Shown: positions 39,223 through 57,569 of the stretch, one piece after another
Position numbering within the stretch: position 1 is the stretch's first letter
How the letters are laid out: each line of letters starts with the position of its first letter
Assembly (NCBI GenBank): GCA_963774685.1
Contig: CAVZFU010000005.1
Coordinates: 1,081,538 to 1,145,537 of the forward strand
Length of the DNA stretch: 64,000 nucleotides
DNA from: an uncultured Alphaproteobacteria bacterium
GTDB lineage: Bacteria; Pseudomonadota; Alphaproteobacteria; Rhizobiales; Xanthobacteraceae
Direction of reading: 5' to 3'
Position numbers and translations under genes: made by a program
Notes under the pieces: model-generated
The model's input: the letters and a program-made list of their open reading frames with translations, nothing else
The model's database searches: none
What the model was told of the DNA's origin: nothing

Positions 39223-40131
39223 ATGGCTGACGTACCGGCACGGAAGAAGGTCACCATCAACACCTTGATGGCGAAGATGAAGAAGGGCGAGCCGATCACC
39301 CAGCTTGCCGCGTACGATTATCGCACTGCGGTCGTTGCCGACCGCCTTGGCATGGATATCCTGTGCGTATCCGATACCGGCGGCATGATCCTGTTCGGCC
39401 ACAAGAGCACCGTCTCGGTGAGCTTCGACGAAGTCATGATGATGTCGAAGGCGATCGACCGCGGCTCCAAATACGGGCTGCGCATGGTCGACATGCCGTA
39501 TTGGAGCTTCCACGTCTCGCCGGAACAGGCGGTGGCCAATGCCGGCCGCTTCGTGCACGAAGCCAATGCCGAAGTGATGAAATGCGAGGGAAACAAGCAT
39601 CACGCCAGGAATATCGAGGCGATCGTGCGCGCCGGGATCCCGGTGCAGGGCCACATCGGCATCACTCCGATGCGGATGCCGCAGCTTGGCGGCTTCGTCG
39701 CCCAGGGCAAGACCGCCCAGCGCGCCAAGGAGATGGTGGAAGACGCCAAGGCGATGGTCGATGCCGGCTGCTTCTCGATCCTGTGCGAGGTCACGACGTC
39801 TGAAGTTGCCGAATATCTGGCGCAGACGCTGCCGGTGCCGGTCATCAGCCTCGGCGCGGGCAATGCCGCGCATGGCGTTCACATCATATCTTCGGATCTG
39901 TTCCATCTCTGGGAAGAGCATGTTCCGCGCCACTCGCGGATCTACACCGATCTGATCCCGATCATGGAAGACGTCATCTCGCGCTATATGAAGGATGTCG
40001 TTACCCGCAACTATCCCGGTCCGAAGGAAACCGTCTTCATGAGCCCGGAAGAGTGTCTGCTGTTCGCCCAGGACATGAAGTGGGAACGCAAGGTCGATGA
40101 ATTGAGGTCGGTGGCCAAAAAAACCGCCTGA
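39223..40131 (+). CDS. panB: Divergent 3-methyl-2-oxobutanoate hydroxymethyltransferase (PanB)-like, copy 1
   Basis: AAYD, VSDTGGM, VDMPY, KCEG, GHIGITP, GGFVAQGK, LCEV, GAG; no panC nearby. Confidence 0.8.
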   Translation: MADVPARKKVTINTLMAKMKKGEPITQLAAYDYRTAVVADRLGMDILCVSDTGGMILFGHKSTVSVSFDEVMMMSKAIDRGSKYGLRMVDMPYWSFHVSPEQAVANAGRFVHEANAEVMKCEGNKHHARNIEAIVRAGIPVQGHIGITPMRMPQLGGFVAQGKTAQRAKEMVEDAKAMVDAGCFSILCEVTTSEVAEYLAQTLPVPVISLGAGNAAHGVHIISSDLFHLWEEHVPRHSRIYTDLIPIMEDVISRYMKDVVTRNYPGPKETVFMSPEECLLFAQDMKWERKVDELRSVAKKTA

Positions 40132-40275
40132 TCCCGGCTCCCCGCAGATAGCGTCACCAGCGATACTGGAAACGCACAATGGACAGCGTCTAGCCGCCGC
40201 CCGGTTGCTGGCGCTTGTCTAAAGGCTTCGAAAATCCTCGCTTCGCAGCATCCTTGAAGGACACTGGAACTTTCA

Positions 40276-41973
40276 ATGCCCGCATCACAACATCAGTCAC
40301 CGAAGTCCGACATCGAAATCTCGCAGTCCGCCCCGAAGCGGCGAATCGCGGATATCGCCAGCGAAAAGCTTGGCATTGCGGTGGAAAACCTCGAGCCCTA
40401 CGGCCACTACAAGGCCAAGATGTCGATGGACTACATCAAGTCGCTCAAGGACAAGCCGAGCGGCAAGCTGATCCTGGTGACGGCCATCAGCCCGACCCCG
40501 GCCGGTGAGGGCAAGACCACCACCACGGTAGGCCTCACCGACGCGCTCAACCATATCGGCAAGAAGGCGATGCTCTGCCTGCGCGAACCCTCGCTCGGTC
40601 CGTCCTTTGGCATGAAGGGAGGTGCCGCCGGCGGTGGTTATGCCCAGGTGATTCCCATGGAGGATATCAACCTCCACTTCACCGGCGACTTTCACGCCAT
40701 TACCTCGGCCCATAATCTGTTGTCCGCGCTGATCGACAATCACATCCACTGGGGAAATGCGCTCGGCATCGACAGCCGCCGGGTGGCCTGGCGCCGCGTC
40801 ATCGACATGAACGATCGCGCCCTGCGCGAGATCCTCTGTTCGCTCGGCGGCCCCGCCAACGGCTTTCCGCGCGAGGCTGGCTTCGACATCACCGTCGCGT
40901 CCGAGGTCATGGCGATCTTCTGTCTCGCCAGGGACCTTGATGACCTGAGGGAGCGGCTCGGCAACGTCATCATCGCCTATACCCGCGAGCGCAAGCCGAT
41001 CCGCGGCAAGGACATCAAGGCGCATGGCGCCATGACCGCGCTGCTGAAGGATGCGATCGCACCCAACCTCGTGCAGACGCTGGAAGGCACGCCCGCCTTC
41101 ATCCACGGCGGTCCGTTCGCCAACATCGCCCATGGCTGCAACTCGGTGGTCGCTACCTCGACGGCGCTGAAACTTGCCGACTATGTGGTCACGGAAGCCG
41201 GCTTCGGCGCCGACCTCGGCGCGGAGAAGTTCATCGACATCAAGTGCCGCAAGGCCGGTCTGGAGCCGTCCTGCGTGGTGATCGTCGCCACCATCCGCGC
41301 GCTCAAGATGCATGGCGGCGTCAAAAAGGAAGAACTCAAGAAGGAAGACCTCAAGGCGCTGGAAGCCGGCATGGCCAACCTGCGCCGCCATGTCGAGAAC
41401 ATAAAGAAATTCGGTCTGCCGGCGGTGATCTCGATCAACCGCTTCTCAGCCGACACCGACGCCGAGATCGCGCTGGTCAAGGAAAAGTGCAACGCGCTCG
41501 GCGTCGAAGCGGTGATGGCCGATCATTGGGCCCTGGGCGGCGAGGGCGCCGCTGACGTCGCCAGGGCGGTGGTCAAGACCATCGACGCCGGCGGCGGCAA
41601 GCTCAAGTTTCTCTACCCGGACGAGATGCCGCTGTTCGAGAAGATCGAAACCATCGCGCGCGAGATCTACCGCGCCAAGGAAGTCACCGCCGAGAGGTCG
41701 GTCAAGGATCAGCTCAAAACCTGGGAAGAGATGGGCTTCGGCAAGCTGCCGGTCTGCATCGCCAAGACCCAATACAGCTTCTCGACCAATCCGGACGCCA
41801 AGGGCGCACCGGTCGATCATATCATCAATGTGCGGGAGGTGCGGCTTTCGGCGGGTGCGGAATTCGTGGTGGCGGTATGCGGCGAGATCATGACCATGCC
41901 GGGCCTGCCCAAGCTGCCGGCCGCCGACTCAATCGACGTCGGCGCCGACGGCCGGATCGTCGGTCTGTTCTAG
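40276..41973 (+). CDS. fhs: Formate--tetrahydrofolate ligase
   Basis: [48 protein letters not shown]. Confidence 0.97.
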
Positions 41974-42080
41974 CTCTTAACAACAGGCCAAAATCAGCGG
42001 GTTATCTGAATTGAAGATGCAGCTTTTCCGCTGCCCATGGTGGCGCTCCGCGAAGCGCCAAGGTCAAGTTTGCAGCCGAG

Positions 42081-42989
42081 CTATTTCGCGTCGGCCAGAG
42101 CGCCCAGGGCGGCCATCTTAGTCGAAACCTTTATCTGCTGCTGCCATCGTTCGCAGGATCCGATCGTGTTGTACAGCAGCATCGATACCGTCATGGGGCC
42201 AACTCCGCCCGGCACCGGCGTGATGTAGGACGCCTTTGCCGCGACGCCTTCGAAGTCGACGTCGCCAACCAGGGTGCCGTCCGCCAGGCGATTGATGCCG
42301 ACATCGATAACCACAGCACCGGTGCGCACCATCTCGGGACTTATTAGTCTCGGCTTGCCAGCTGCCACGATCAGGATGTCGGCCAGGATGGTGAATTGCG
42401 CCAGATCCCGGGTCTTGGCGTGACAGATGCTGACGGTCGCCTCATGCTGCATCAGCATCAGCGCCATCGGCTTGCCGACGATGTTGCTGGCGCCGACCAC
42501 GACGACATTTCTGCCCTCGATCGGGATCCTTGCGTGTTCGAGCAGTTTCACCACGCCGAACGGGGTGCAGGGCGGAAACACCGTTCCGCCCGCCACCAGG
42601 CCGCCTACATTGTAGAGATGAAACCCATCGACATCCTTCTCGACCGAAATCGTGTGGAGTATTCGGGCAAGATCGAACGAGGCCGGCAGCGGCAGTTGGA
42701 CGAGAATGCCGTGAATAGACGGGTCCTGGTTGAGATCCTCGATCGTGTCGACGACGACTTGCTGGGACACGTCGAGCGGGAAACGGATCTCGCGCGAACG
42801 GATTCCAACGTCGTTGCAGGCGCGAATCTTGTTCCGTACATAAAGCTCCGAAGCGGGATCCGATCCGACGAGCACCACGGCGAGGCCTGGCGGCGTCCCG
42901 CCACGGGCGACAATGCGATCCACGCGCTCGCGGCATTCGCCGCGAATCTCGGCAGCGACGGCCTTACCATCGATAATGATTGCGGTCAC
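42081..42989 (-). CDS. folD: Methylene-THF dehydrogenase / cyclohydrolase (GTG start)
   Basis: IIDGK, GILVQLPLP, KDVDGFH, PCTP, SNIVGKP, GDVD, TPVPGGVGPMT. Confidence 0.96.
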   Translation of the reverse strand: MTAIIIDGKAVAAEIRGECRERVDRIVARGGTPPGLAVVLVGSDPASELYVRNKIRACNDVGIRSREIRFPLDVSQQVVVDTIEDLNQDPSIHGILVQLPLPASFDLARILHTISVEKDVDGFHLYNVGGLVAGGTVFPPCTPFGVVKLLEHARIPIEGRNVVVVGASNIVGKPMALMLMQHEATVSICHAKTRDLAQFTILADILIVAAGKPRLISPEMVRTGAVVIDVGINRLADGTLVGDVDFEGVAAKASYITPVPGGVGPMTVSMLLYNTIGSCERWQQQIKVSTKMAALGALADAK

Positions 42990-43059: not shown

Positions 43060-43944
43060 TCATTCCTTACTGACGCGCTTCGAGTAGGCTTCGATGAAGT
43101 CGGCAGCCGCCTTGCTGCCGCGGACGAAGGACTTCATCGCTTCCTCGTGCAGAAGTCCCAGTGCCTGCATCTTGATGGCATTGGCCTCATCGCTTTCCGT
43201 GATGTTTTCGACGTTGCGAGGTCGCGGCAGACTGACGTCGATGGAGGCGCGCACCTCGGTCGGGATGTTGGTCATGATCAGGATGCGATCGGCGAGATAG
43301 ATGGCCTCGTCGATATCCGTCGTCACGAAGAACGTCGTGCGCTGAAACTCGCTATAGAGATTGGCATAATATTCCTGCATCAGACGTTTCGTCATGGCGT
43401 CGAGCCCGCGAAATGGCTCGTCGAGGATCATGACGTTCGGCTCGTTGATCATGGCGCGGGCGAGCTCCGCACGCCGCTGCATGCCGCCGGAGAGCTGGGA
43501 CGGGTACTTCTTGCGGAACGCCCCGAGTCCCACTTTCTGCAGCAACATCTCTGCAAGATCGCGGGTCTCCGGGGTGTCCTGGCCGCGGGCGCGCGGGCCG
43601 TACATGATGTTGTCGTAAGTCGACATCCACGGAAAAAGTGCGGTTTCCTGGAACACGACCAGGCGATCGACGCCGGGTCCGGTCATCGGCTTGCCGTCGA
43701 CGGTAATGGTACCGCTGCTGGGACGTTCGAAGCCAGCCAGCAGCCGGATCAACGTGCTCTTGCCGCAGCCGGACGGGCCGATCATCACCGTCAGTTTGCC
43801 CCGCTCCAGCGTGAAGCTGCAGTTGTGGATGACCTGCTTGCCGAAATGCTCGGTGCCGTAGGATTTGCTGACGTTCCGGACGCTGATTTCGCTCCCGAGC
43901 GAAGCTCCACCGTTGGCCGCGAGAATGGGTGTCATTTGCTGCAT
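43060..43944 (-). CDS. ABC ATP-binding subunit (second; nitrate/sulfonate type)
   Basis: GPSGCGKST, LSGGMQRR, ILDEPF; switch reads VTTDIDEA (T in place of the usual H). Confidence 0.9.
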   Translation of the reverse strand: MQQMTPILAANGGASLGSEISVRNVSKSYGTEHFGKQVIHNCSFTLERGKLTVMIGPSGCGKSTLIRLLAGFERPSSGTITVDGKPMTGPGVDRLVVFQETALFPWMSTYDNIMYGPRARGQDTPETRDLAEMLLQKVGLGAFRKKYPSQLSGGMQRRAELARAMINEPNVMILDEPFRGLDAMTKRLMQEYYANLYSEFQRTTFFVTTDIDEAIYLADRILIMTNIPTEVRASIDVSLPRPRNVENITESDEANAIKMQALGLLHEEAMKSFVRGSKAAADFIEAYSKRVSKE

Positions 43945-43964
43945 TGTCCGGTTCCGACCGTCCT

Positions 43965-44786
43965 TCAGTCTTCGTTGAGCCAGGGCGTCATCCATTTGCC
44001 CAGCTTTCGCAGCGCCGCGCTGGAAATGTAGCCGGCAACGCCGATGCTGATCATGCCGGCGACGATTTGGGTGTATGATCCGCCCACGTAGGAATTCCAG
44101 ATAAAGAAGCCGAGCCCGCCGCCGGCGCCGCTGCCGCCGCCGGAAATCATTTCGGCGGCGACCACCACGGCCCAGGTGATGCCGACGCCGACCGTGGCGC
44201 CGACGGCCATCGACGGCAGGGTTGCCGGCAGAATGATGCGCCGGAAAATGTCCCAGGTGGATGAGCCCATCGAGCGAGCCGCCTGGAAATAGCGCACGTC
44301 AATCGCCTGGGCACCGCCGATCACATTGATGACGATGGTGAAGAACGCCCCGAGGAACGTCACGAACGCGATTGAGAGTTCCTGGGTAGGCCAGAAAATG
44401 ATCGACGCGGGAACCCAGGCCAGCGGCGGGATCGGTCGCAGCACCTCGAAAACCGGAAACGTGATTCCATAGAAGGTTCTGCTGACGGCCATGGCGAGGC
44501 CGAGCGGTATGCCGATCACCATCGCGGCGAAAAACCCTTCGAATACCCGCAAGGTGCTGAGAAGCGCGCTCTGCCAGAAGCTGGCTTCGTGAAACAGCGT
44601 GAACAGCTCCCGCATCACCGCGACCGGCGGCGGTATCTGGGAGATCCAGGGCAACGCAAACCCGAACCAGCTCAGCGAGCGCGATCCGGTTTCCCAGAAC
44701 ATCAGAAAAGCCAGGATCGCGACGATACCTCGCCAGAAATCCTCGCCGGTCACGAATCCGCCCGCCTTCAGGGACCAATTCATCAT
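43965..44786 (-). CDS. ABC permease (MsmH-like)
   Basis: LRPIPPLAWVP, AARSMG, VVAAEM. Confidence 0.88.
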   Translation of the reverse strand: MMNWSLKAGGFVTGEDFWRGIVAILAFLMFWETGSRSLSWFGFALPWISQIPPPVAVMRELFTLFHEASFWQSALLSTLRVFEGFFAAMVIGIPLGLAMAVSRTFYGITFPVFEVLRPIPPLAWVPASIIFWPTQELSIAFVTFLGAFFTIVINVIGGAQAIDVRYFQAARSMGSSTWDIFRRIILPATLPSMAVGATVGVGITWAVVVAAEMISGGGSGAGGGLGFFIWNSYVGGSYTQIVAGMISIGVAGYISSAALRKLGKWMTPWLNED

Positions 44787-45682
44787 CAGCGCTCCTTCTC
44801 GCCGGCGGCAAACGCCTTGATCGCTTCTTCGTGGACCGCGGCCGCGGTTTCGTCCATGAACTCGCGGAACCGCTTTGTCGTCAGCACCCCATAGTCCCGC
44901 GGATGCGGAATATCGATGTCGAGTATCTTCTTCGGCCGGCAGGGCCGGCTCGTCATGATCACGACGCGGTGGCCGAGAAAGATCGCTTCTTCCAGGTCGT
45001 GCGTAATGAAGAAGATGGTGACGCGATTCTTGTAGAAGATCTCGAGCAGGGCCTCGTGCATCACCGACTTGGTGAGCGAATCAAGCGCGCGATAGGGTTC
45101 GTCGAGCAACAACACCTTGGGGTCCGTCATCAGCGCGCGTACGATCTCGACCCGGCGGCGAACGCCGGACGAAGTTTCGCCGGGATAATCGCTTTCGATG
45201 TCGCGCAGCCCGGCATCCGCCATCATGTAACGGGCCTTATCGTATGCTTCGGCCTTGGTCATGGTTCCCTGCATGATCGGTCCGAAGGCCACGTTTTCGA
45301 TATTGGTCTTCCACGGAAACAGCGCGCCGTTCTGGAAGACAACGATCCGATCCGGGCCGGGCTCGGCCTGGAGCTTGCCGGGGCCGCACAGCATCTGGTC
45401 GTCGAGATAAATGCTGCCGGACGACAGGCTGTGAAAACCGGCGATGGCATTGAGAAGTGTCGTTTTGCCGCAACCGGAGGGGCCGACCACGACGGTGATT
45501 TCCCCGGGCGGGACGTCGAATGTGCAGTGGTCGACCGCCAGAATGCCGCCGCCTTGCGTGCCGTAGGTCTTGACCGCGTCGACGATGCGAACGCCGCCTT
45601 TGCGCACGATCTCGGGATGTGTCGCAGGCCATGGGCCTTGCGCCGGGGAGGCGCCCGGGGGTGCCGATGGCTGGATGTTCAT
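44786..45682 (-). CDS. ABC ATP-binding subunit (MsmG-like)
   Basis: GPSGCGKTT; signature TSSGVRRR; LLDEPY; ITHDLEEA. Confidence 0.88.
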   Translation of the reverse strand: MNIQPSAPPGASPAQGPWPATHPEIVRKGGVRIVDAVKTYGTQGGGILAVDHCTFDVPPGEITVVVGPSGCGKTTLLNAIAGFHSLSSGSIYLDDQMLCGPGKLQAEPGPDRIVVFQNGALFPWKTNIENVAFGPIMQGTMTKAEAYDKARYMMADAGLRDIESDYPGETSSGVRRRVEIVRALMTDPKVLLLDEPYRALDSLTKSVMHEALLEIFYKNRVTIFFITHDLEEAIFLGHRVVIMTSRPCRPKKILDIDIPHPRDYGVLTTKRFREFMDETAAAVHEEAIKAFAAGEKER

Positions 45683-46596
45683 CTGTCTGCTCCGAGCGCG
45701 AGTTCTCGGGTGCGCCATTGCATCATGTAGTCGCCGAGCATGCGGATCGCGGCACTGGTGAGGTATCCGACGAGTCCAAGCGTTGCCATCGCGATGACGA
45801 TCGTCGGATAGCGAACCATCGTGTAGGAGGTGTTGATGAGGTAGCCCAAGCCGTACTGCCCGGAGACCATTTCACCGGCGACGAGCGAGAACCACGCCAC
45901 GCCGATTGAAATCTGCAACCCGGTGAAAATGAACGGCAACGCCGCCGGCACGATGACTTGGCGGAAGACCTGCCAGCGGTTGGCGCCGAGACAGCTTGCC
46001 GCCCGAATATAGGACACGTCGATGGATTCGACGCCGAGCATGGTGTTGAGCGCGGTCGCGTAGAACGATGCCAGGAAGGTCAGGAAAATGACCGGCGTTT
46101 CGGATCCCTGGAACATGACGATCGCGAGCGGCACCCATGCCAGCGGCGGCACCGGCCGCAGCAATTCGAAAACCGGAAAGACATACTGCTTGAACCGTTG
46201 CGACCAGCCGAGAAACAGCCCGAGCGGGACGCCGATCGCGGTGGCGAGAAAGAACGCTATCGCAATGCGCCGCGTGCTCACCCAGATGTGGAGGTAGTAT
46301 TCGGGGGTGAAGACCGACAGGCCGTAGACCGGATTCCGGCTGAACCATTCACGCAGGACCGCGGTCGGTCCGGGCATCTCGGCGAAGCGAGGCAGCTTCC
46401 ACACTTCCACGGCGAAGTACCAGAAGCCGAGAAACAGAGTGAATCCGATCAGCATCAGGTACGGCCGCGGGCTTCGCAGCCAAAGCGACAAGCGATACAT
46501 CGCGACCGCCAGTGGCGTCTGCTTGCGCGAAGGATGGCTGCCCGTTGCCGGCCCCGCGTTAAGTCCTGGAATGTCAGACGCCGCTGTTTCGCTCAT
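45679..46596 (-). CDS. ABC permease (MsmF-like)
   Basis: LRPVPPLAWVP, AASCLGA, LVAGEM. Confidence 0.88.
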   Translation of the reverse strand: MSETAASDIPGLNAGPATGSHPSRKQTPLAVAMYRLSLWLRSPRPYLMLIGFTLFLGFWYFAVEVWKLPRFAEMPGPTAVLREWFSRNPVYGLSVFTPEYYLHIWVSTRRIAIAFFLATAIGVPLGLFLGWSQRFKQYVFPVFELLRPVPPLAWVPLAIVMFQGSETPVIFLTFLASFYATALNTMLGVESIDVSYIRAASCLGANRWQVFRQVIVPAALPFIFTGLQISIGVAWFSLVAGEMVSGQYGLGYLINTSYTMVRYPTIVIAMATLGLVGYLTSAAIRMLGDYMMQWRTRELALGADR

Positions 46597-46670
46597 ATAG
46601 CTTGTCCTGCTGTAACTAGCCTTGGTCGTGTCCGCTCCGGTTCAGGAGGCTCGCAGAGAACTTGATCTGG

Positions 46671-46728
46671 CGTTTGCCGGGCGGGCGCTTTCTGTCGCGG
46701 CGGATTCCAGCAACCCGCCCGGCAAACG
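46671..46728. other. Intercistronic stem-loop after the binding-protein gene
   Basis: CGTTTGCCGGGCGGG ... CCCGCCCGGCAAACG, a 15-bp perfect inverted repeat. Confidence 0.7.
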
Positions 46729-46732
46729 ACGT

Positions 46733-47911
46733 TCATTTGTCGGTGTACATCTCAACCGGAAGCGCCTTGACCTGCCCCACCGGAGCTTTCAGGCCATGCG
46801 CCTTGAGAATTTCGTCGGTAAATTGCGGTACGACCGCTTCGGGCCGGATTTCCGCCTGGATGCTCTTGATTTCGACCAGGAATTTGGAGGCCTTTTGAAT
46901 CAGCTCATTCGCCTCAGGGGTAAATCCGTAAGGCAGCGTGATACGGATATCGGTGCCGCCCTCGGATGCCGGCGTCTGCCCGAATGCCGACGACCACAGC
47001 GCCTTCTCGGTGAAGCCGGTGGTCTGGCTGGTGGCCATCCTTGCGACATCCATCGCATTCTTGGGATCGACGAAATACTGAGCGGCATCGAGCTCGGCCT
47101 CAAGCCACGCCTTGACGACGTCGGGCCGCTGCTCGATCAGGGCTTGCGGCATCACCATGAAGCCTCCATCGCGCTCGTTGACCGAGACGCCGGACGCAAC
47201 CCTGCGTGCAAGCCCCTCCTGAACGAGGCGCGACGCCGTCGGCTCCCAGATTACGGCGGCGTCCAGTTTGCCGGCGCGCAAGCCGCTGGTGATGACCTCG
47301 ATGCTTTGATTGAGGTATTCCGATGGCGTGATTCCGCGTTCCTTGAACACGGCCTGTGCGAACCGGTCGGTGCAGCTTCCTTTCGGAACCGCGACAATCT
47401 TGCCGTTCAGCCACTTCAACGCTTCATCGGGTGTCTTGAACTGCGGCGCGTCGGGGCGGGTCAGAAAGATATTGCATTGGTCGAAGCCGAGGCCGAGCAC
47501 GGAGACGATGCGGACGTCACGGACTTCCGGATGGCTGGTGGAAACAATCCCGGGCATGTCGCCGACGTAGCCAACGTCGACCTTTCCGGCGAGCATTCCG
47601 TTGACGATAATCGCGCCCTGCAGGCCGATCTGGAAGCTGACATTAGAGCCCTTGGGCAAGTATTTCTCATAGAACTTCTTGTCCCGCATGATCATGCCGG
47701 TCCATGATTCCGTGTAATACGGCTGGTAGCCGATCACGAGTTCGATCGGTTCCCCCGGTTTGCCGTATGCCTTTGACGCGGCCGCGTTAGCGGGCCCGGT
47801 GCCGGCGACAAGCGCCCCGATTGACCACAAACCGGCCAGCAAAAGGCCGAGTGCCCATCCTGATGTCGCAGAGCGCGCGGCGCGTGCGGCTCCCTGGTGC
47901 TTATGTTGCAT
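46733..47911 (-). CDS. ABC substrate-binding protein (MsmE/SsuA-like)
   Basis: Signal peptide; IGYQPY; GKVDVGYVGDMP; GKIVAVPKGS; AAVIWEP. Confidence 0.85.
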   Translation of the reverse strand: MQHKHQGAARAARSATSGWALGLLLAGLWSIGALVAGTGPANAAASKAYGKPGEPIELVIGYQPYYTESWTGMIMRDKKFYEKYLPKGSNVSFQIGLQGAIIVNGMLAGKVDVGYVGDMPGIVSTSHPEVRDVRIVSVLGLGFDQCNIFLTRPDAPQFKTPDEALKWLNGKIVAVPKGSCTDRFAQAVFKERGITPSEYLNQSIEVITSGLRAGKLDAAVIWEPTASRLVQEGLARRVASGVSVNERDGGFMVMPQALIEQRPDVVKAWLEAELDAAQYFVDPKNAMDVARMATSQTTGFTEKALWSSAFGQTPASEGGTDIRITLPYGFTPEANELIQKASKFLVEIKSIQAEIRPEAVVPQFTDEILKAHGLKAPVGQVKALPVEMYTDK

Positions 47912-49564: not shown

Positions 49565-49679
49565 CCGATGTGTCCCCGGCCGGGCGAGGCACGGCCGGGT
49601 TTCATGATCTGCCAGCGCGTCGCTCGTCTGCGCGGTGACGCCGGTTGCCCGGCCTCTGACGACCAAATGGGGATTAGCT

Positions 49680-50160
49680 GTGGACGTCTACGCTCTCGTT
49701 CGTGACACTGTTTACCGGTCGACCATTCTGCTCGATCAGCAGGACTGGAACGGCTGGCTGGCGCATTGCGACGACCAGTTTCAGTATGCCATCCGTGCAT
49801 GGAGTCCGGAAATCAACAAGGACGTGACGTATCTCTCGCATGACCTGAAAGGTCTCGCGAGCATGGTCAAGCTATTGCCCAAGCATAATACCGATCATTC
49901 GCCGCTGACCCGGCATACGTCGCTCTATACCGTCGATGTCGATGAATCGACGCGCTCGGCCAGGTCGGTCAGTTCGGTCATCGTCTATCAAAACCTTCTC
50001 GACGGTATCAATTCCCACGTCGATGCCGGCGAGAGCCGCTTGTTCCTGGTGGGCAAATACATCGACACCTTCAGGATCGAGTAACAAGGCGACCTTTCTG
50101 AGCCGGGAGGTGCGGATCGAGAATCGTCGGCTGGACAAGGGCTCGCACTGGCCGATTTGA
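49680..50160 (+). CDS. msmB: Methanesulfonate monooxygenase beta subunit (apparent +1 frameshift at 50082)
   Basis: Ring-hydroxylating beta-subunit-like; frame 1 ends YIDTFRIE* and the next frame continues NKATFLSREVRIENRRLDKGSHWPI*. Confidence 0.8.
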
Positions 50161-50217
50161 TAGCGCTTGCGCGAACGCGCTGGCTTCGCGGAAGGCAACG
50201 GTGAAAGAAGTCGAGAA

Positions 50218-50580
50218 ATGACCTGGAAGCGCATATGCGGGTTGAGCGATGTCGCCGAGAACACCGTTAGGAAATTCGACATCGAGGGCATCCCGATCCT
50301 GCTGGTCAATTACGGCGGCGGCTACCGCGCCATCCCGCCGATTTGCCCGCACATGGAAGAACCGCTGGAGGAATCCGGCGTCGTCGTGCGCTGCATCCTG
50401 ACTTGCACCAAACATCTGTGGGCCTGGAAACTCGACACGCTCGAAATGCAGGGAGAGACCGAAAAACCGCTCAAGATCTATGAGACCAAACAGGAAGATG
50501 GTTCGATTCTCGTCAATGTCGAACAGGAACTGGTCTATGAATTCGACGAAGCCGCCGACGACGACGACTTTTTCAAATAG
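50218..50580 (+). CDS. msmC: Rieske ferredoxin
   Basis: CPHMEEPL...CTKH; acidic C-terminus. Confidence 0.85.
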   Translation: MTWKRICGLSDVAENTVRKFDIEGIPILLVNYGGGYRAIPPICPHMEEPLEESGVVVRCILTCTKHLWAWKLDTLEMQGETEKPLKIYETKQEDGSILVNVEQELVYEFDEAADDDDFFK

Positions 50581-50593
50581 CCGCGTCAACTCG

Positions 50594-51626
50594 ATGAAGA
50601 TTGCAGTTCAAAGCAGGAGCGGCGAAACCGCCTTCGAATGCGGAGATGGCGAAGCCATTCTGCACGCGGGATTGCGGCAAGGCATCAGCCTTCCCTATGA
50701 ATGCGCCACCGGTAGCTGCGGGACCTGCCGCGCCCGCGTGGTGAGTGGTGACGTCGACGTGCGCTGGAAGGAAGCGCCCGGTAGCGCACGGCTCAAGCCG
50801 GAAAAAGGCGACATCTTGATGTGCCAGACCAGGGCGCGATCGGATTGCGTCCTCAAGATTCCTTCGGATATCGGGATCGTGGAACAGCGTCCGGCGCCGC
50901 GCCGCGGCGTCATTTGCAATATTCAAAGATTGACCAGGGACGTGGCCCGGTTCGATATCCGTCTTTCGTCGCCGATGCGTTTTGAGGCCGGGCAGTTTGT
51001 CGTTGTCGACTCTTCCCGACCTCGCGGGCGCGCGCGCCTACTCGATGGTCAACTTCGATACCGAGGTAGATCTGATCGAACTGGTCCTCAAACGCAAGCC
51101 CGGCGGGCGATTTAGCGATTGGCTGTTCAGCGCCGGGCAGGAAGATCCGGAAGTCGCGGTATTCGGTCCGCTCGGCCGCGCCGTGTTTCGCCCGCACGAG
51201 GACAAGAACATCCTGTGCATCGCCGGCGGCTCGGGAATCGCCGGAATCATGTCGATCCTCGAATGCGCGGTTCAGGTCGATTACTTTCGCGATCACAAAG
51301 GCTCGGTGTTCTTCGGCGTGCGGACGCTGCAGGATGCCTTCTATCTGGAGGCATTCACCCGGTATGTCGCCTCATCGCACGGCAATCTCGAGGTCACGAT
51401 CGCTTTGTCCGATGAAGCCGCGACGGCCGGCTTTCATGCCGATTACCCGCTGCTGCGGCTCGCAGACGGCTTCGTTCACGAGGTCGCGGGTAAGGCGATG
51501 GCCGGCGAGGCCGGGGACGCGATCGCCTATGTGGCAGGGCCGCCGGTCATGGTGGACAGCGCCATTCGCGGGCTGATTATGTGCGGCATGCCCAGTCGGG
51601 ACATTCGATATGACAAGTTCGGTTAA
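50594..51626 (+). CDS. msmD: Oxygenase reductase, 2Fe-2S/FAD/NAD (apparent +1 frameshift near 51008)
   Basis: CATGSCGTC...C, RAYSM, GPLG, IAGGSGIAG, YVAGPPVMV, YDKF. Confidence 0.85.
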
Positions 51627-51646: not shown

Positions 51647-52414
51647 TTGATCCGGCGGGATGGCAGTCGGTGCGAGCGCTTGATCTCGATGGTCTTGCGC
51701 AAGGCGAGGGCGGAGACCCTCAATCTCATACAGTGGCTGGCCCGGGTCGCGAACAGTTACGTGCCTGCCGGTTTCCCAGAAGGGCGGCAGCAGCTCGAGT
51801 ACCGGGCCGCCACCGCGACCTTCCTCACCAGGCCTTTCGATAAGGACCTGACCCTCGCCTTGCAGATGCCGACTCTTGAAATGCAATTTCACGGGCACAG
51901 AAAGGCGGAGCCGCATATTTTCGATCCCGAAGAACGCTCGCCGGCGGAAGCCGAGGCGTGGCTGCTGGTCGAACTTCTGCATCGCGGAGTCGATACCGCA
52001 AGGTTCTCGAAAAAGCTGCCCTACGATATTCCCGGTTTGATGACCGGCGATGCCGCTGACCATTCGCCGCAATCGTGTCAACACGCCTTGACGCAATTGA
52101 CCGCCTGGTTTCGCAAGGCGGCAGCGATACTTGATGCCGCGGCCTGGACCTCGGACACCGAACAGACCTGCATTGTCTGCTGGCCGCAGACGCTCAGCCT
52201 CTCATGCGCGTCGAAGGGCGGATCGGCGCGCCCCGACATCGGATTTTCGCCGGGCGATGCGGATCACAACGAGCCGTATTTCTACCGGGGTCATCGGGCG
52301 AGCAACGGACCTGGGACTCGCAAGGGCCGCTCGATTTTGACGGCGTCGGAACTGCTGGCTGCCAGCGATCCGGCCGCCACGGCATTCGGCTTTCTGACCA
52401 CCGCGGCAACGTGA
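51647..52414 (+). CDS. Hypothetical protein, directly after msmD
   Basis: 255 aa ORF; C-terminal WP...GFSPGD..EPYFY is reminiscent of DUF5996-like proteins. The start is uncertain (ATG 51689 possible). Confidence 0.6.
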   Translation: MIRRDGSRCERLISMVLRKARAETLNLIQWLARVANSYVPAGFPEGRQQLEYRAATATFLTRPFDKDLTLALQMPTLEMQFHGHRKAEPHIFDPEERSPAEAEAWLLVELLHRGVDTARFSKKLPYDIPGLMTGDAADHSPQSCQHALTQLTAWFRKAAAILDAAAWTSDTEQTCIVCWPQTLSLSCASKGGSARPDIGFSPGDADHNEPYFYRGHRASNGPGTRKGRSILTASELLAASDPAATAFGFLTTAAT

Positions 52415-52431: not shown

Positions 52432-53403
52432 CTAGACCGCGGTTTTCCGATTCTTGATCGGCCCGTCATAGACGGTGGCGTGATCGCCCTCGATGCGTTT
52501 GCGCAATTCGCCCGACTTGTTCATCGTGCGCACGGCGGATATGAACGCACCAGCCATCGGCAACACGATCTCTCCTTCGGTCCAGAACAGGCCGACCTCC
52601 TGACTGACGGTCGGACTGATCAGCGGTATCGCGCGCGTTCCGCGATGCAGCCCGGGCGCGTGGGCGAAGTGCGATGGGATAATGGTGCAAAGCTCGGTGA
52701 ATTGAACCTGGAACATCAGGTGCAAAATCGATTCGGATTCGATTTGAGCCTCCGGCTTGCAGCCGACGCTGGCGAACACCTGGTCGACAAACCGGCGCTC
52801 ATGCATCGAGGGACGCAGCATCGCCAGCGGATACTTCGCTGCATCCTTCCAGGTGATGGTCTTGCGATTCTGGAATTCGGCCGTATCGGGAACCAGCAGG
52901 CTCAATTGCTCGGTGTAGATCGGCAAGGTGTTCTTGCGTCCGAGATCCGCCTTGTCGAGATAGGTCATCGCGACATCGAGCGCGAAATTGTTAAGTCCGA
53001 GCTTCATCGCCTCGTTGCCGATGAATTGCACGTCGACGCGCAGGCCGGGATATTTCTCCCGCAGGCCCTGCAGCATGAACGGCAGCACCGGCGACATCGA
53101 GGGCATCACACCCATGCGCAAATGGCCGGTCAGGTTATTCTTCATGACCTCGATTTCTTTACGCATCGCGTCACAATGCGCCAACACCGCACGCGACCAT
53201 ATCGCAACGCGCTCGCCTTCCGCCGTCAGCCCCTGAAAGCGCTGGCCGCGACCGCGCAGAAAGATCGGAACGCCAAGCTCCAGCTCCAATTGTGTTATGC
53301 CGCTGGAAAGGCTGGGTTGGGTGACGTTGCAGCGCTGGGCGGCGCGGCCGAAATGGCGTTCTTCCGCAACGGCAACCAGATAGCGAAATTGCCTGAGAAA
53401 CAT
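52432..53403 (-). CDS. LysR family regulator
   Basis: RQFRYLVAVAEERHFGRAAQRCNVTQPSLSSGITQLE. Confidence 0.95.
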   Translation of the reverse strand: MFLRQFRYLVAVAEERHFGRAAQRCNVTQPSLSSGITQLELELGVPIFLRGRGQRFQGLTAEGERVAIWSRAVLAHCDAMRKEIEVMKNNLTGHLRMGVMPSMSPVLPFMLQGLREKYPGLRVDVQFIGNEAMKLGLNNFALDVAMTYLDKADLGRKNTLPIYTEQLSLLVPDTAEFQNRKTITWKDAAKYPLAMLRPSMHERRFVDQVFASVGCKPEAQIESESILHLMFQVQFTELCTIIPSHFAHAPGLHRGTRAIPLISPTVSQEVGLFWTEGEIVLPMAGAFISAVRTMNKSGELRKRIEGDHATVYDGPIKNRKTAV

Positions 53404-53556: not shown

Positions 53557-54315
53557 GTGGCAATATCGAGTCTGATTTGGATATCGCTCCTGGGACTGAC
53601 TTCCGGCCTGATGATCGGATGCGTCGGCATTGGCGGCGTGATCCTGGTACCGGCGCTGGTGTTTCTTGCCGACATTCCGATCGAGACCAGCATTCCGGCG
53701 GCGCTGATGGCCTACGTGCTGCCCGGCCTCGTCGCGACAATCGTGTTTGCGCGTAACAAATCCATCCGTTGGGACATCGCGACATGGCTGTGCGTGGGCG
53801 CGGTGCCGACCGCGTTTGTCGGGGCGTGGGCGGTCAGCGTCGTCAATCCCCGATTACTGGAGGCGTGTCTCGGCCTTCTGACATTCCTGTCGGGCCTCAA
53901 TTCGCTAAGGACACAAAGCGCGGCCGGCAAACTCGAGTGCGTTCCGTCCAGCACGCGGCTGCTTGTCGTCGGAGCGGTGACCGGGTTTCTGTCGTCGATC
54001 ACCGGCACAGGGGGTCCCCTGGTGCTGGTGTCGATCGTCATTTCCATGAGCGTGCCGGTGCTGGTCGCGGTCGGGCTGAGCCAGGTGATTCAGCTTCCGG
54101 TGGCGATCGTCGCAACCTTCGGTAATCTGCTCTACGGACAGCTTGACTTTGAGTTGGGCGGCGTTCTGGCGGTGTCCTTGACCATCGGATCCTGGTACGG
54201 GGCAAAGCTTGTCCACGCCGTGCCGCGCACGACCTTGCACTGGATCGTATCGGTCGTGCTCGTGGTGGTAGGCGCTTTCATTCTTGGAAATGTCATTTGG
54301 CGGCTGTGGAAGTAA
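53557..54315 (+). CDS. TauE/SafE (TSUP) sulfite exporter family
   Basis: GCVGIGGVILVP and SITGTGGPLV internal repeat; about 8 TMs. Confidence 0.88.
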   Translation: MAISSLIWISLLGLTSGLMIGCVGIGGVILVPALVFLADIPIETSIPAALMAYVLPGLVATIVFARNKSIRWDIATWLCVGAVPTAFVGAWAVSVVNPRLLEACLGLLTFLSGLNSLRTQSAAGKLECVPSSTRLLVVGAVTGFLSSITGTGGPLVLVSIVISMSVPVLVAVGLSQVIQLPVAIVATFGNLLYGQLDFELGGVLAVSLTIGSWYGAKLVHAVPRTTLHWIVSVVLVVVGAFILGNVIWRLWK

Positions 54316-54318: not shown

Positions 54319-55338
54319 ATGGCGCTGGAAGGATTTAAGCTTATCTACGATTTCGGCGACCCCGCAGCCGAGGCGAAGACATGCCGGACGGACTGTGCGC
54401 TGTTCGATTTCTCCTTCCTGGAATGTGCGCGGCTTGCCGGGAATCGCGCGTGCGACCTCATCGAGAGGTTCACCGGAAGGTCAATGGCCACGTTGAGGGA
54501 AAACGAGATATTTTATGCCTTGCGCGTTGATTCCGACGGCCGAATAACTGCCGATTGGACCGTGTGGAAGATCGCTGAGAATTCGTTCGATGTGATGAGC
54601 GGGCGCCGCGAGGATATTCTGGATTTGCTCGCGTGCTCCGGTCCGGGCGTTGCCGTCGTCGACATGACGGCGGATCGAGCGACGTTCGCGCTGCAGGGTC
54701 CCCGTGCGCTGGATATGTTGCGCAAACTCGGCGACGTCGGTCACATCGGCTCGCTCAAATACTTCACGTTCGACCACGCCCGTCTTGCGGGCATTCCCTG
54801 CACGATTGGTCGGCTCGGCTATACCGGGGAGCCCGGCTTCGAGATCATCGCAGAGCAGGGGAAAGCGCGCGATCTGTGGGACGCATTGTCCGCCCGTGTC
54901 GCCGCCGCGGGATTCATTGCGGCCGATATCCTGCGCATCGAGGCTGGCTTTATTCTGTTCAGCAATGAGTTCCGGCTACCCGTGTCGCCCTCTGAAGTCG
55001 GTCTTGGGAAATTCAGCCGTCCCGTCGATCCGCTTGAACCCGCCATAAAGCTGGTCTCGTTCCTCGCCGATGCGCAACCCCAGTCGTGGCCCTGGCGGCC
55101 GTCGCGCGACCTGCAGCGGCCCTCCGGGCTCGGGGCAATCGCGGTGACGTCGGCCTGCCAAAGCGTTGCGGCCGGCGGAATTCTCGGTCTTGGCTATGTC
55201 CTCGCCGAAGCATCGCCCGACACGGTTCTGCGCGATGAAGCAGGCAACTTCCGCAATATTCGTTTGGCGCCGAGGCCATTTTACGACACCGCAAAACAAC
55301 GTCCTCGCGAGCCCTGGCAGCAATCAGGCGACCGGTAA
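54319..55338 (+). CDS. Stand-alone GcvT-like folate-binding aminomethyltransferase family protein
   Basis: ALFDFS, GRITAD, FALQGPRA, RLGYTGEPGFEI, LRIEAG; no gcvH/P in the window. Confidence 0.85.
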   Translation: MALEGFKLIYDFGDPAAEAKTCRTDCALFDFSFLECARLAGNRACDLIERFTGRSMATLRENEIFYALRVDSDGRITADWTVWKIAENSFDVMSGRREDILDLLACSGPGVAVVDMTADRATFALQGPRALDMLRKLGDVGHIGSLKYFTFDHARLAGIPCTIGRLGYTGEPGFEIIAEQGKARDLWDALSARVAAAGFIAADILRIEAGFILFSNEFRLPVSPSEVGLGKFSRPVDPLEPAIKLVSFLADAQPQSWPWRPSRDLQRPSGLGAIAVTSACQSVAAGGILGLGYVLAEASPDTVLRDEAGNFRNIRLAPRPFYDTAKQRPREPWQQSGDR

Positions 55339-55349
55339 TCGCGGTGATC

Positions 55350-55414
55350 ATAGCCCGGGGCAACTATAAGATAGCTTTTGCGTATTTGACGGACCGGAGG
55401 CCGCAGCGCCCAAT
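55350..55414 (+). promoter_or_regulatory. Tandem LysR-type boxes and promoter for metF (homologous to the panB leaders)
   Basis: ATAG-N7-CAAC (55350), ATAG-N7-GTAT (55371), TTGACG-N17-CCCAAT. Confidence 0.6.
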
Positions 55415-55576
55415 GTTCCCGCAAACGAGAAGCGGCGGATTGGCGTTCACCGCTGCCGGGTTCTGCAAGACCATTTGGAGCGATTGCTACCTCGAAAACT
55501 CCCAATCCCCGCTGACGATGTCGCCGAGGACGATGGTTTCGCCATGCGGAGCTATGGCATTGAGAGACCGCCGCCC

Positions 55577-56458
55577 ATGACGATGGAATCGCGCGCGCAG
55601 CGAAACTCGACAGCAAACTGCGTCTCGTCATTGATGCAGGATCTTTCCATAGAGGCCACGCTGCCAAACCAAATGGAATTGGAGTCGCTGCGCGACATCC
55701 TTCCCTCTACGACTCAGATCTTTGTTGCAGCTCCACCGGGTCGTCCGTATTTGCGGCTGGTAGAAACGGCAATACAAATTCGCAAAGCCGGTTTTGAACC
55801 GGTTCCGCATATCGCGGCCCGAAATTATGAATCTCTGAAAGCCCTCGGCGACTTCGTCGCGCGGATATGCGGCGAATCCGGTGCGCGACGGGTTTTGGTA
55901 ATTGCCGGCGATGTCGATCGCCCGGCGGGACCATTTTTGGGGGCCAACGCGGTCATCGAGAGTGATCTCCTGCAGCGCTACGGAATTCGCGAGATCGGGG
56001 TCTCCGGATACCCGGACGGCCATCCGAAGCTAAGCGACGCAATTGTAATCGGTGCTCTGAGACGAAAGCTGAATTCGGCAAAGGAGAGAAATCTAAAGGT
56101 AACAATTGTCTCTCAACTGTGTTTTGACGCGGACCAAATCACCGCTTGGGTGAAGTCGTTGCGGAGCTCGGGCATCAGTGTGCCAGTTAGTATCGGTCTC
56201 GCAGGGCCGACAAGCATCAGAGGACTGGCGCGTTTTGCCTTAATGTGCGGTGTGCGCAATTCTTTCAAGGCATTTGTCGACGGCAAGACAAGTCAACTCT
56301 TCGGCGAAGCGTCGCCGGGCGACATCATCCATGACCTCAGCGAAGCCCTCGATCTATCGATGCCGGGGCAAATTTCCCTGCACCTCTACGCGTACGGCGG
56401 TCTGGTCCGAACGGTGAACTGGGCAAAGGATTTTCAAACTCGTTTCGGGGACGTTTAG
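55577..56458 (+). CDS. metF: Methylenetetrahydrofolate reductase-like
   Basis: PVPHIAAR, VIAGD, SGYPDGHP, SQLCFD, GLAGP, LHLYAYGG. Confidence 0.85.
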   Translation: MTMESRAQRNSTANCVSSLMQDLSIEATLPNQMELESLRDILPSTTQIFVAAPPGRPYLRLVETAIQIRKAGFEPVPHIAARNYESLKALGDFVARICGESGARRVLVIAGDVDRPAGPFLGANAVIESDLLQRYGIREIGVSGYPDGHPKLSDAIVIGALRRKLNSAKERNLKVTIVSQLCFDADQITAWVKSLRSSGISVPVSIGLAGPTSIRGLARFALMCGVRNSFKAFVDGKTSQLFGEASPGDIIHDLSEALDLSMPGQISLHLYAYGGLVRTVNWAKDFQTRFGDV

Positions 56459-56490
56459 CGTGAGCGCGGCTCCGGGCGTAGGCCCGAGCC

Positions 56491-57569
56491 GCCAACGCGC
56501 CGATGATAGCCGAGGGCAACTATATGATAGTTTTTGCATATTTGACGGACCGGATGCGGTAGCGCTCCATGCGCCTGCAACTGAAACGGCCGGGCGGCGA
56601 AGGTCGCTGCCGGCTTCTTCAAGGCTTTCGAAAACTAGGCTTGTGAGTGGGGGATTGGTTATGGCTGACGTACCGGCACGGAAGAAGGTCACCATCAACA
56701 CCTTGATGGCGAAGATGAAGAAGGGCGAACCGATCACCCAGCTTGCCGCGTACGATTATCGCACTGCGGTCGTTGCCGACCGCCTTGGCATGGATATCCT
56801 GTGCGTATCCGATACCGGCGGCATGATCCTGTTCGGCCACAAGAGCACCGTCTCGGTGAGCTTCGACGAAGTCATGATGATGTCGAAGGCGATCGACCGC
56901 GGCTCCAAATACGGGCTGCGCATGGTCGACATGCCGTATTGGAGCTTCCACGTCTCGCCGGAACAGGCGGTGGCCAATGCCGGCCGCTTCGTGCACGAAG
57001 CCAATGCCGAAGTGATGAAATGCGAGGGAAACAAGCATCACGCCAGGAATATCGAGGCGATCGTGCGCGCCGGGATCCCGGTGCAGGGCCACATCGGCAT
57101 CACGCCGATGCGGATGCCGCAGCTTGGCGGCTTCGTCGCCCAGGGCAAGACCGCCCAGCGCGCCAAGGAGATGGTGGAAGACGCCAAGGCGATGGTCGAT
57201 GCCGGCTGCTTCTCGATCCTGTGCGAGGTCACGACGTCTGAAGTTGCCGAATATCTGGCGCAGACGCTGCCGGTGCCGGTCATCAGCCTCGGCGCGGGCA
57301 ATGCCGCGCATGGCGTTCACATCATATCTTCGGATCTGTTCCATCTCTGGGAAGAGCATGTTCCGCGCCACTCGCGGATCTACACCGATCTGATCCCGAT
57401 CATGGAAGACGTCATCTCGCGCTATATGAAGGATGTCGTTACCCGCAACTATCCCGGTCCGAAGGAAACCGTCTTCATGAGCCCGGAAGAGTGTCTGCTG
57501 TTCGCCCAGGACATGAAGTGGGAGCGCAAGGTCGATGAATTGAGGTCGGTGGCCAAAAAAACCGCCTGA
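56491..57569 (+). repeat. Direct repeat copy 2 (panB-like gene plus promoter)
   Basis: See copy 1; LysR-type boxes at 56506 and 56527, TTGACG at 56542. Confidence 0.95.
56661..57569 (+). CDS. panB: Divergent PanB-like, copy 2
   Basis: Translation is identical to copy 1 from MADVPARKK onward. Confidence 0.8.
   Translation: MADVPARKKVTINTLMAKMKKGEPITQLAAYDYRTAVVADRLGMDILCVSDTGGMILFGHKSTVSVSFDEVMMMSKAIDRGSKYGLRMVDMPYWSFHVSPEQAVANAGRFVHEANAEVMKCEGNKHHARNIEAIVRAGIPVQGHIGITPMRMPQLGGFVAQGKTAQRAKEMVEDAKAMVDAGCFSILCEVTTSEVAEYLAQTLPVPVISLGAGNAAHGVHIISSDLFHLWEEHVPRHSRIYTDLIPIMEDVISRYMKDVVTRNYPGPKETVFMSPEECLLFAQDMKWERKVDELRSVAKKTA

Follow-up and report, generated by a model that had tools for sequence, protein, structure and literature searches.

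The DNA considered here, hereafter the window, is a stretch of 64,000 nucleotides (64 kb) from an uncultured alphaproteobacterium of the family Xanthobacteraceae (GenBank assembly GCA_963774685.1, contig CAVZFU010000005.1, forward-strand positions 1,081,538 to 1,145,537). It contains a gene cluster for the oxidation of methanesulfonate (MSA), msm, together with two genes for a divergent protein of the PanB (ketopantoate hydroxymethyltransferase) family, to which, as the PanB-family protein of the MSA cluster, we give the name PanBL. Taking sequence and gene context together, PanBL appears to be a neofunctionalised ketopantoate hydroxymethyltransferase paralogue belonging to the MSA catabolic module and not to pantothenate synthesis, and we regard a role in one-carbon (C1) metabolism that is specific to MSA and separate from pantothenate as very probable.

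The duplicated gene and its upstream element

The two PanB-family open reading frames (ORFs), of 909 nt each, are the larger part of a direct repeat of 1,080 nt, each copy of which also includes about 169 nt of upstream DNA:

39054..40131, forward: direct repeat copy 1, a promoter-like element plus PanBL-1 (blastn, 99.35% identical to copy 2; repeat search)
39069..39086, forward: ATAG-N10-CTAT dyad box that precedes PanBL-1, with GATAG and TATTTGAC after it (pattern count)
39223..40131, forward: PanBL-1, divergent PanB-family protein of 302 aa (PF02548, E 1e-81; tree; AlphaFold2 model)
55350..55367, forward: second ATAG-N10-CTAT box, upstream of a gene resembling that of methylenetetrahydrofolate reductase (MTHFR) (pattern count, shared element)
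56491..57569, forward: direct repeat copy 2, with a box at 56506-56523 and PanBL-2 at 56661-57569 (repeat, box and ORF comparison)

The two products are identical over all 302 residues, as had been read from the sequence alone, and the three differences between the ORFs (at 39291, 39666 and 40086) are all synonymous, with none non-synonymous, so that both copies look to be under constraint. The upstream parts of the repeats are one substitution and a small indel patch apart. Since the copies differ at synonymous sites as well as upstream, the duplication is real, and its origin as an assembly artefact is ruled out. Between them the two copies bracket msmABCD and msmEFGH, lysR, tauE, a GcvT-like gene, fhs and folD.

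The pattern ATAG-N10-CTAT occurs exactly three times in the 64 kb (at 39069, 55350 and 56506), against 0.15 matches expected by chance, and the three sites precede PanBL-1, the MTHFR-like gene and PanBL-2 respectively, each dyad lying within a common element of about 65 nt that terminates in TATTTGAC. The sequence-only reading had spoken of a LysR-type promoter shared with metF; the three boxes bear this out as a fact of sequence, whereas we infer, rather than observe, that LysR binds the element. The exact box is found in none of 85 related PanBL loci and is therefore particular to this genome, and related genomes keep a degenerate form, CATAGCC..GATAG..TATTTGAC, at about 130 nt upstream of PanBL. 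The shared element, together with the synteny described below, agrees with the earlier claim that the gene is embedded in the msm cluster and apparently co-regulated with it. A riboswitch or leader upstream of PanBL was also considered and rejected, as an Rfam E-value scan of 36-60 kb gave only the tRNA.

Separation from housekeeping PanB and loss of pantothenate genes

In a phylogenetic tree PanBL forms a clade of its own, very slowly evolving and with 100/100 support. Its stem is long, and canonical PanB copies from PanBL-bearing genomes stay outside it, as do the E. coli and M. tuberculosis enzymes; PanBL does not group with ordinary PanB. Scores against the Pfam profile PF02548 split just as cleanly, at about 345 bits for canonical PanB and about 272 for PanBL. 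A 50%-identity library holds one full-length PanBL representative, at 78%, and the next relatives follow at 45-46%. Named relatives that are 81-95% identical come from Xanthobacteraceae, Hyphomicrobiaceae, Geminicoccaceae and SAR116, the closest being Pseudolabrys and metagenome-assembled genomes (MAGs) of Xanthobacteraceae. Canonical PanB stands alongside PanBL in 20 of 24 PanBL genomes. On these sequence comparisons PanBL appears to be a divergent paralogue of PanB and not the housekeeping enzyme.

The genome under study offers something close to a natural knock-out. No panC lies in the window, and genome-wide only a stump of about 95 codons is left, a deletion of 1.33 kb at C2:1808971-1809036, seen by comparison with same-genus genomes, having taken two thirds of the gene. 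Where relatives have a canonical panB locus of 2.5-3.1 kb, 47 bp are found instead (C2:955897-955944), with both flanks contiguous. An assembly gap behind these absences is ruled out, both being clean deletions within contiguous syntenic DNA, and the source organism should be a pantothenate auxotroph. Since panB and panC are deleted and PanBL is kept, the selective value of PanBL is not pantothenate synthesis. Being the sole panB of its genome was a circumstance that the sequence-only reading had held to speak for an ordinary enzyme; PanBL is indeed the only PanB-family gene here, yet in a genome from which panC and the canonical panB are both gone. In two Geminicoccales genomes PanBL is likewise present and both PanC and canonical PanB are absent, the genomes G055 and G085 have PanBL without PanC, and in G057 PanBL is the only PanB-family gene and PanC is present.

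Two side observations concern the same genes. Several same-genus genomes (G005, G017, G019, G020, G022 and G023), some of them complete single-contig assemblies, have a full-length PanC and no PF02548 match; salvage of pantoate, a PanB of non-orthologous origin and a gene overlooked by the first-look filter of the search are possible reasons. Furthermore, a third, very divergent PanB-like class (L102-L106, from G046, G050, G060, G062 and G063) scores about 200 bits on PF02548, bears the replacements H136Q and E181T, and is found in some Xanthobacteraceae alongside both canonical PanB and PanBL.

Fold and active site

PanBL matches PF02548 (Pantoate_transf) over profile positions 1-258 of 259, barely passes the NCBIfam panB equivalog model TIGR00222 (209.4 against a cut-off of 207.55) and stays under the cut-off of the PRK00311 subfamily model NF001452 (249.3 against 272). 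Its AlphaFold2 model (pLDDT 86, pTM 0.87) resembles PanB crystal structures with TM scores of 0.88-0.90 in Foldseek, the next-best folds being those of 2-methylisocitrate lyases, and it is predicted to carry, in a C-terminal extension of about 35 residues, two extra helices (275-301) without counterpart in E. coli PanB. Domain fusions were considered as a clue to function and proved uninformative, as the long proteins with PanB that lie near the query are fusions of canonical PanB to PanE.

For the active site, 119 PanBL sequences were aligned with 41 canonical PanB (E. coli numbering). D45, D84, K112, E114, H136, E181 and D217 are invariant in all 119, and the first six make up the set of charged residues that lie no more than 5 Å from the ligand of the E. 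coli enzyme, EcKPHMT (PMC13488298). The claim that the residues for Mg2+ binding and enolisation are retained thus holds for the six catalytic and metal residues. The four motifs that line the EcKPHMT ligand pocket (PMC13488298), on the other hand, are all changed in PanBL, where the altered versions are themselves invariant:

EcKPHMT LVGDS reads CVSDT in PanBL
EcKPHMT HLGLTPQS reads HIGITPMR in PanBL
EcKPHMT IPVIGIGAG reads VPVISLGAG in PanBL
EcKPHMT DGQILVMHD, canonically DGQ(I/V)LVxxD, reads HGVHIISSD in PanBL

The canonical DLPF..Y moreover reads DMPYWSF (F87Y, Y90F), so that every non-canonical motif earlier singled out (CVSDT, DMPYWSF, SLGAG and HGVHII) was recovered in the alignment. 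The substitutions also include G44S, S46T, G116N, Q142M, G201S, G220H and F229H, and position 211, a Gln in 41 of 41 canonical PanB, is Val in every PanBL. Several of these changes put Ser, Thr, Asn or His in the place of a canonical Gly or hydrophobic residue, and we infer from them a pocket that would fit a different and more polar ligand.

All this bears on the simplest explanation, in which PanBL would be an ordinary ketopantoate hydroxymethyltransferase isozyme, for example one tolerant of sulfite or of formaldehyde, or one induced to use a surge of methylene-tetrahydrofolate (methylene-THF), and would owe its place in the msm island to chance or to the supply of coenzyme A. Such an isozyme would account for the strong PF02548 match and the TIGR00222 cut-off just met, for the catalytic residues all being kept, and for PanBL being the only PanB-family gene here and in the PanC-bearing G057. 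It would not account for the deletion of panC and canonical panB beside two intact PanBL copies, the genomes with PanBL and no PanC (G055, G085), the coexistence with canonical PanB in 20 of 24 genomes, the separate clade, the change of four invariant pocket motifs with Q211V among the replacements, or an msm synteny kept across four alphaproteobacterial lineages, and we consider it highly improbable.

The msm neighbourhood in this genome

Between and beyond the two PanBL genes lie the following features:

40276..41973, forward: fhs, formate--tetrahydrofolate ligase, directly downstream of PanBL-1 (PF01268, E 1e-272)
42081..42989, reverse: folD, methylene-THF dehydrogenase/cyclohydrolase (PF00763, PF02882)
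43060..48163, reverse: five-gene sulfonate-type ABC importer of the SsuA family (Pfam matches ABC_tran, BPD_transp_1, NMT1_2), with an extra ATPase (43060-43995), msmH (43965-44786), msmG (44786-45718), msmF (45679-46596) and msmE (46733-48163)
48293..51626, forward: msmABCD, methanesulfonate monooxygenase (Rieske, Ring_hydroxyl_A/B, Fer2), with msmA (48293-49564), msmB (49635-50084), msmC (50167-50580) and msmD (about 50594-51626)
51647..52414, forward: conserved hypothetical ORF of about 240 aa between msmD and lysR (no Pfam)
52432..53403, reverse: LysR-family regulator, CynR-like, divergent from tauE (HTH_1, LysR_substrate)
53557..54315, forward: tauE/safE-type sulfite exporter (PF01925, E 6e-38)
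54319..55338, forward: stand-alone GcvT-like folate-binding protein of the aminomethyltransferase fold (PF01571, E 4e-47)
55475..56458, forward: weak MTHFR-like gene between the GcvT-like gene and PanBL-2 (PF02219, E 1e-9)
57635..59071, forward: MFS transporter downstream of PanBL-2 (MFS_1, Sugar_tr)
59126..59824, forward: 5-formyl-THF cyclo-ligase, downstream of the MFS gene (PF01812, E 3e-25)

The constituents of an msm cluster, namely the Rieske alpha and beta subunits, the ferredoxin, the reductase and an SsuA-type ABC system, are all found, and MsmA has the 26-residue spacer in CXH-X26-CXXH that marks methanesulfonate monooxygenases (PMC4433239). The annotation of some neighbours is looser: the GcvT-like protein stays under every GcvT/DmdA cut-off, and the MTHFR-like gene reaches 38 bits on TIGR00676 against a cut-off of 294 and has a counterpart in none of the 85 related PanBL loci. 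The hypothetical ORF at 51647-52414 has no Pfam match at E<=5; by tblastn its homologues lie beside lysR in 74 of the 85 PanBL loci, and they also occur in 18 of 36 PanBL-negative msmA loci, in the PanBL-less msm clusters of Methylobacterium, Hansschlegelia, Methylocella and others. The ORF is a member of every type of msm cluster.

Conserved partners and the direction of C1 transfer

Neighbourhoods were counted in 85 PanBL loci with flanks of up to 10 kb. The divergent LysR was counted in about 76 of them, TauE in 75 and the GcvT-like gene in 66, and 47 have MsmA at a distance of up to 10 kb, with lysR<->tauE-(gcvT-like)-PanBL as the core arrangement. Where no msmA flanks PanBL, MsmA (78-87% identity) was found elsewhere in the genome in 21 of 23 genomes tested, PanBL lying at a contig end in the remaining two, so that in nearly all genomes checked PanBL implies MsmA. 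It is thus strictly bound to MsmA and not to C1 substrates in general. Xanthobacteraceae, Hyphomicrobiaceae, Geminicoccaceae and SAR116, four lineages of Alphaproteobacteria, all keep the synteny with msm. The genes of SAR116 run msmABCD, a Mo-oxidoreductase, lysR, tauE, PanBL, fhs, folD and tauE, and the PanBL-fhs order recurs in some Xanthobacteraceae loci. SAR116 loci have no GcvT-like gene, and PanBL is therefore the sole candidate there for linking the oxygenase product to tetrahydrofolate (THF). PanBL is also the most conserved protein of the cluster, with a mean identity of 90.8% as compared to 88.5% for MsmA, 75.5% for MsmB, 70.7% for MsmC, 65.4% for TauE and 64.0% for MsmD, and its divergence runs parallel to that of MsmA (Spearman 0.62). 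The undescribed C1 role first proposed from sequence seems very probable.

The converse does not hold: PanBL occurs in at least 177 species-level genomes and MsmA relatives in 260 species genomes, and 17 msm-positive genomes are without PanBL genome-wide, among them Methylobacterium, Hansschlegelia, Methylopila, Chelatococcus, Microvirga, Methylocella, Methylovirgula and Ancylobacter, which rules PanBL out as a universal part of MSA catabolism. Among 54 msmA loci with full flanks, 34 have PanBL, each of them together with FolD, Fhs or GcvT-like genes, which are found in none of the 20 PanBL-less loci. PanBL is part of an accessory, folate-linked module and not of the oxygenase.

A second pattern emerges from a search for Fae (PF08714) in 46 msm-positive genomes. 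Fae is present in 16 of the 17 that are PanBL-negative and in 14 of the 29 that are PanBL-positive, and 15 of the 16 Fae-negative genomes, including the source genome, have PanBL (Fisher's exact p = 0.0016, uncorrected for shared ancestry). By analogy this suggests that PanBL may supply on THF what Fae supplies on tetrahydromethanopterin (H4MPT).

These partners bear on the direction in which C1 units would flow. The sequence-only reading took PanBL for a C1 sink, in which the hydroxymethyl group of methylene-THF, or formaldehyde, would be moved to a 2-oxo acid other than ketoisovalerate, such as pyruvate, to give 4-hydroxy-2-oxobutanoate, in the service of C1 assimilation or of detoxification. 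We find this unlikely. The enolisation and metal residues, all kept in a remodelled pocket, and the apparent co-regulation with a formaldehyde-producing oxygenase would suit it, as would the use of free formaldehyde and other 2-oxo acids by PanB enzymes in vitro (Sugantino et al. 2003, cited in PMC7770189; PMC10127515). Nevertheless, no conserved neighbour is there to process a hydroxymethyl-oxo-acid, the genomic context lends the proposed direction no support, and the partners that do recur, FolD, Fhs and PurU, consume methylene-THF oxidatively. PanBL is moreover present in SAR116, for which we know of no C1 assimilation. Its strict tie is to MsmA and sulfite export and not to C1 substrates generally, and stoichiometric use of an oxo acid would be costly. 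The sink had further been thought to stand in for a missing serine hydroxymethyltransferase (SHMT), which is missing from the window only, as the genome has glyA outside it, at C2:1665936-1667069. In sum, a PanBL that feeds the THF pool fits the genomic context better than one that drains it.

Sister clades

The closest outgroup to PanBL, P0132, is 46% identical, has D84 and K112 replaced and is adjoined by a TauE gene. A second, P0142-like clade carries D45N and D84H and comes from an Ancylobacter MAG, Hansschlegelia sp. KR7-227 and Chenggangzhangella methanolivorans CHL1 (loci L194/L196, L197 and L198, respectively). Its genes are arranged as FolD(-)-PurU(-)-LysR(-)<->PanB-like-SsuA-family binding protein-permease-cNMP-domain ATPase-ATPase; the operon contains no oxygenase, and its binding protein aligns with MsmE over 343 residues at 33% identity (E 2e-62). 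Thus two independent architectures pair a PanB-like enzyme with sulfonate transport or sulfite export and with folate C1 oxidation. The P0142-like operon is a candidate pathway for the import of a small sulfonate, e.g., hydroxymethanesulfonate, and the release of its C1 unit. A further relative, P0130, has an MFS transporter, a Crp regulator, GlcD/F-like oxidase genes and an SBP56-family gene as neighbours.

The sulfonate theme invites a different explanation, in which PanBL would be a THF-independent, Mg2+-dependent C-S lyase that cleaves hydroxymethanesulfonate into formaldehyde and sulfite, or acts on another small sulfonate. TauE being the most constant neighbour (75 of 85 loci), the TauE or SsuA/MsmE-like importer genes adjoining the sister clades, the greater pocket polarity brought about by Gly-to-Ser/Asn and X-to-His changes, and a fold superfamily (isocitrate lyase/PEP mutase) rich in lyases can all be read in its favour. 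FolD, Fhs, GcvT-like and PurU genes, however, co-occur with PanBL as strongly as TauE does, and free formaldehyde in Fae-negative genomes would be hazardous. The formaldehyde would then have to be caught by the GcvT-like protein, by Fae or spontaneously, and SAR116 and Filomicrobium-type loci are without the GcvT-like gene, so the THF-loading step would still be missing there. This explanation seems to us quite improbable.

Proposed function and mechanism

The route from MSA to formaldehyde and sulfite through MSA monooxygenase passes via hydroxymethanesulfonate, and the step from the oxygenase to C1 metabolism is always written as spontaneous, first as the breakdown of hydroxymethanesulfonate to formaldehyde and sulfite and then as the condensation of formaldehyde with THF to methylene-THF. 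Both assumptions of spontaneity look weak, because hydroxymethanesulfonate is a stable, slowly reversible adduct that releases formaldehyde slowly (PMC6459274), and because the reaction in which formaldehyde condenses spontaneously with THF is too slow in vivo for growth, with no enzyme known for it (PMC7073904). Formaldehyde and sulfite are the reported products of MSA monooxygenase (PMC4424283). PanB itself catalyses the reversible transfer of a hydroxymethyl group from 5,10-methylene-THF to ketoisovalerate in its Mg2+-stabilised enolate form and can use free formaldehyde as well (PMC7770189 and references there); it has been discussed as a conceivable catalyst of formaldehyde-THF condensation through a ketopantoate shuttle (PMC7073904).

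From this it is tempting to propose that PanBL passes the hydroxymethyl unit of the oxygenase product, be it hydroxymethanesulfonate or formaldehyde, to THF, a proposal that we rate about evenly balanced between true and false. MSA monooxygenase would hydroxylate MSA to hydroxymethanesulfonate (HOCH2SO3-), the formaldehyde-bisulfite adduct, and PanBL would run the 'reverse' PanB half-reaction on it or on formaldehyde released from it. Mg2+ and the Lys would stabilise the leaving group, in this case sulfite in place of the ketoisovalerate enolate, and Glu181 would act on the hydroxyl, the CH2 unit going to a putatively bound THF to give 5,10-methylene-THF. FolD and Fhs could then oxidise the C1 unit to formate with a gain of ATP, or SHMT and MTHFR could use it, and TauE would export the sulfite. 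As a variant, a bound 2-oxo acid might serve as catalytic carrier between formaldehyde and THF. The further step of regarding PanBL and its sister clades as hydroxymethanesulfonate:tetrahydrofolate hydroxymethyltransferases that release sulfite, an unrecognised enzyme class, with the sister operon devoted to the direct catabolism of environmental hydroxymethanesulfonate, is a tentative one, and we would ourselves put it on the doubtful side.

Several observations weigh against the proposed transfer to THF. We know of no PanB-THF complex, and the changed residues could be read either as part of the C1-donor site or as part of the oxo-acid site. The complete enolisation apparatus kept in PanBL would serve a 2-oxo-acid substrate as well. 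THF might just as well be loaded by the GcvT-like protein, and hydroxymethanesulfonate might in truth be handled by the product of the ORF at 51647-52414. In cultured MSA degraders (Methylobacterium, Hansschlegelia, Methylocella and others) msm is present and PanBL absent; PanBL is therefore not essential to MSA oxidation as such. Hyphomicrobiaceae carry both Fae and PanBL, and the association between the two is confounded by phylogeny. Lastly, in the genome under study msmD, the reductase gene of MSA monooxygenase, is frameshifted near 51018-51028, beside a GCGCGCGC run, with residues 20-164 in one frame and 161-362 in the next, which makes it either a real pseudogene or the product of a long-read indel error.

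Relation to known systems and significance

The proposed function can be set beside several known systems. With PanB (EC 2.1.2.11; PDB 1M3U, 1OY0, 1O66/1O68, 3EZ4, 3VAV), PanBL shares the Pfam family, the fold (the TM scores given above), the Mg2+ ligands D45, D84 and E114, the residues K112, H136 and E181 and, probably, the type of chemistry, that is, hydroxymethyl transfer with folate. It differs in being only about 28-38% identical, in its own clade, four changed pocket motifs and C-terminal extension, and in a context that is devoid of pan genes and syntenic instead with msm, tauE and genes of folate C1 oxidation. To Fae, which is H4MPT-dependent, the likeness is one of proposed role, in that formaldehyde-level carbon would be put onto a pterin ahead of a dehydrogenase/cyclohydrolase, and the two are largely complementary among msm-positive genomes; Fae, however, has an unrelated fold, H4MPT and not THF as cofactor, free formaldehyde as substrate and no link to sulfite export. 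In the GcvT family (GcvT, DmdA and the folate domains of sarcosine and dimethylglycine oxidases) a CH2 or CH3 group leaving a heteroatom is likewise caught on THF, and one stand-alone member has its gene in the PanBL operon, although these proteins have another fold and no metal. The GcvT-like gene is missing from a fifth of the PanBL loci, including those of SAR116, and is therefore not the sole link to THF.

A PanBL gene next to msm is already on record. The msm region of 'Candidatus Filomicrobium marinum' Y was tabulated by Henriques & De Marco 2015 (PMC4433239, Table 1) with LysR, TauE/SafE, a 'glycine cleavage T protein', a '3-methyl-2-oxobutanoate hydroxymethyltransferase', sulfite dehydrogenase, msmEFGH and msmABCD, the gene in question being listed only as 'C1-moiety transfer', with no phylogeny, comparison with housekeeping PanB, functional proposal or test of one (PMC4433239). 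Here, by contrast, the gene occurs twice and is paired with fhs, and the genome retains no other gene of the PanB family. Our literature search found no functional study of a PanB-family enzyme in a methanesulfonate context. What is new, then, is the 'knock-out' context of deleted panB and panC with a duplicated, constrained PanBL, the complementarity with Fae and the oxygenase-free sister operon.

PanBL, including that of the abundant marine SAR116 and of soil Xanthobacteraceae, is in this way a concrete and testable candidate for a missing catalyst. If PanBL is indeed a hydroxymethanesulfonate:tetrahydrofolate hydroxymethyltransferase, it would be the first known enzyme for loading THF with carbon at the formaldehyde level, a THF counterpart of Fae, and the 'spontaneous' breakdown of the MSA monooxygenase product would in fact be catalysed. 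Should PanBL be confirmed as the missing catalyst, the MSA branch of the sulfur cycle would need revision. Hydroxymethanesulfonate is moreover an abundant atmospheric organosulfur compound for which, to our knowledge, no biological sink has been reported. A systematic mis-annotation would also be corrected, as PanBL genes are all called '3-methyl-2-oxobutanoate hydroxymethyltransferase', a name that would make pantothenate auxotrophs look prototrophic, and synthetic methylotrophy would gain a folate-linked enzyme for the fixation of formaldehyde.

The island

One more feature lies at the edge of the block:

38722..38811, forward: tRNA-Ser(GGA), 243 nt upstream of repeat copy 1 (ARAGORN; Rfam tRNA, 61 bits)

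This tRNA gene is a possible island boundary. Adjoining repeat copy 1 as it does, and with the 1.08-kb direct repeats spaced 17.4 kb, it suggests that the msm block was integrated as an island and could undergo amplification or excision. The island has also picked up extra folate genes, namely the MTHFR-like gene, which comes with its own copy of the promoter element, and that of the 5-formyl-THF cyclo-ligase.

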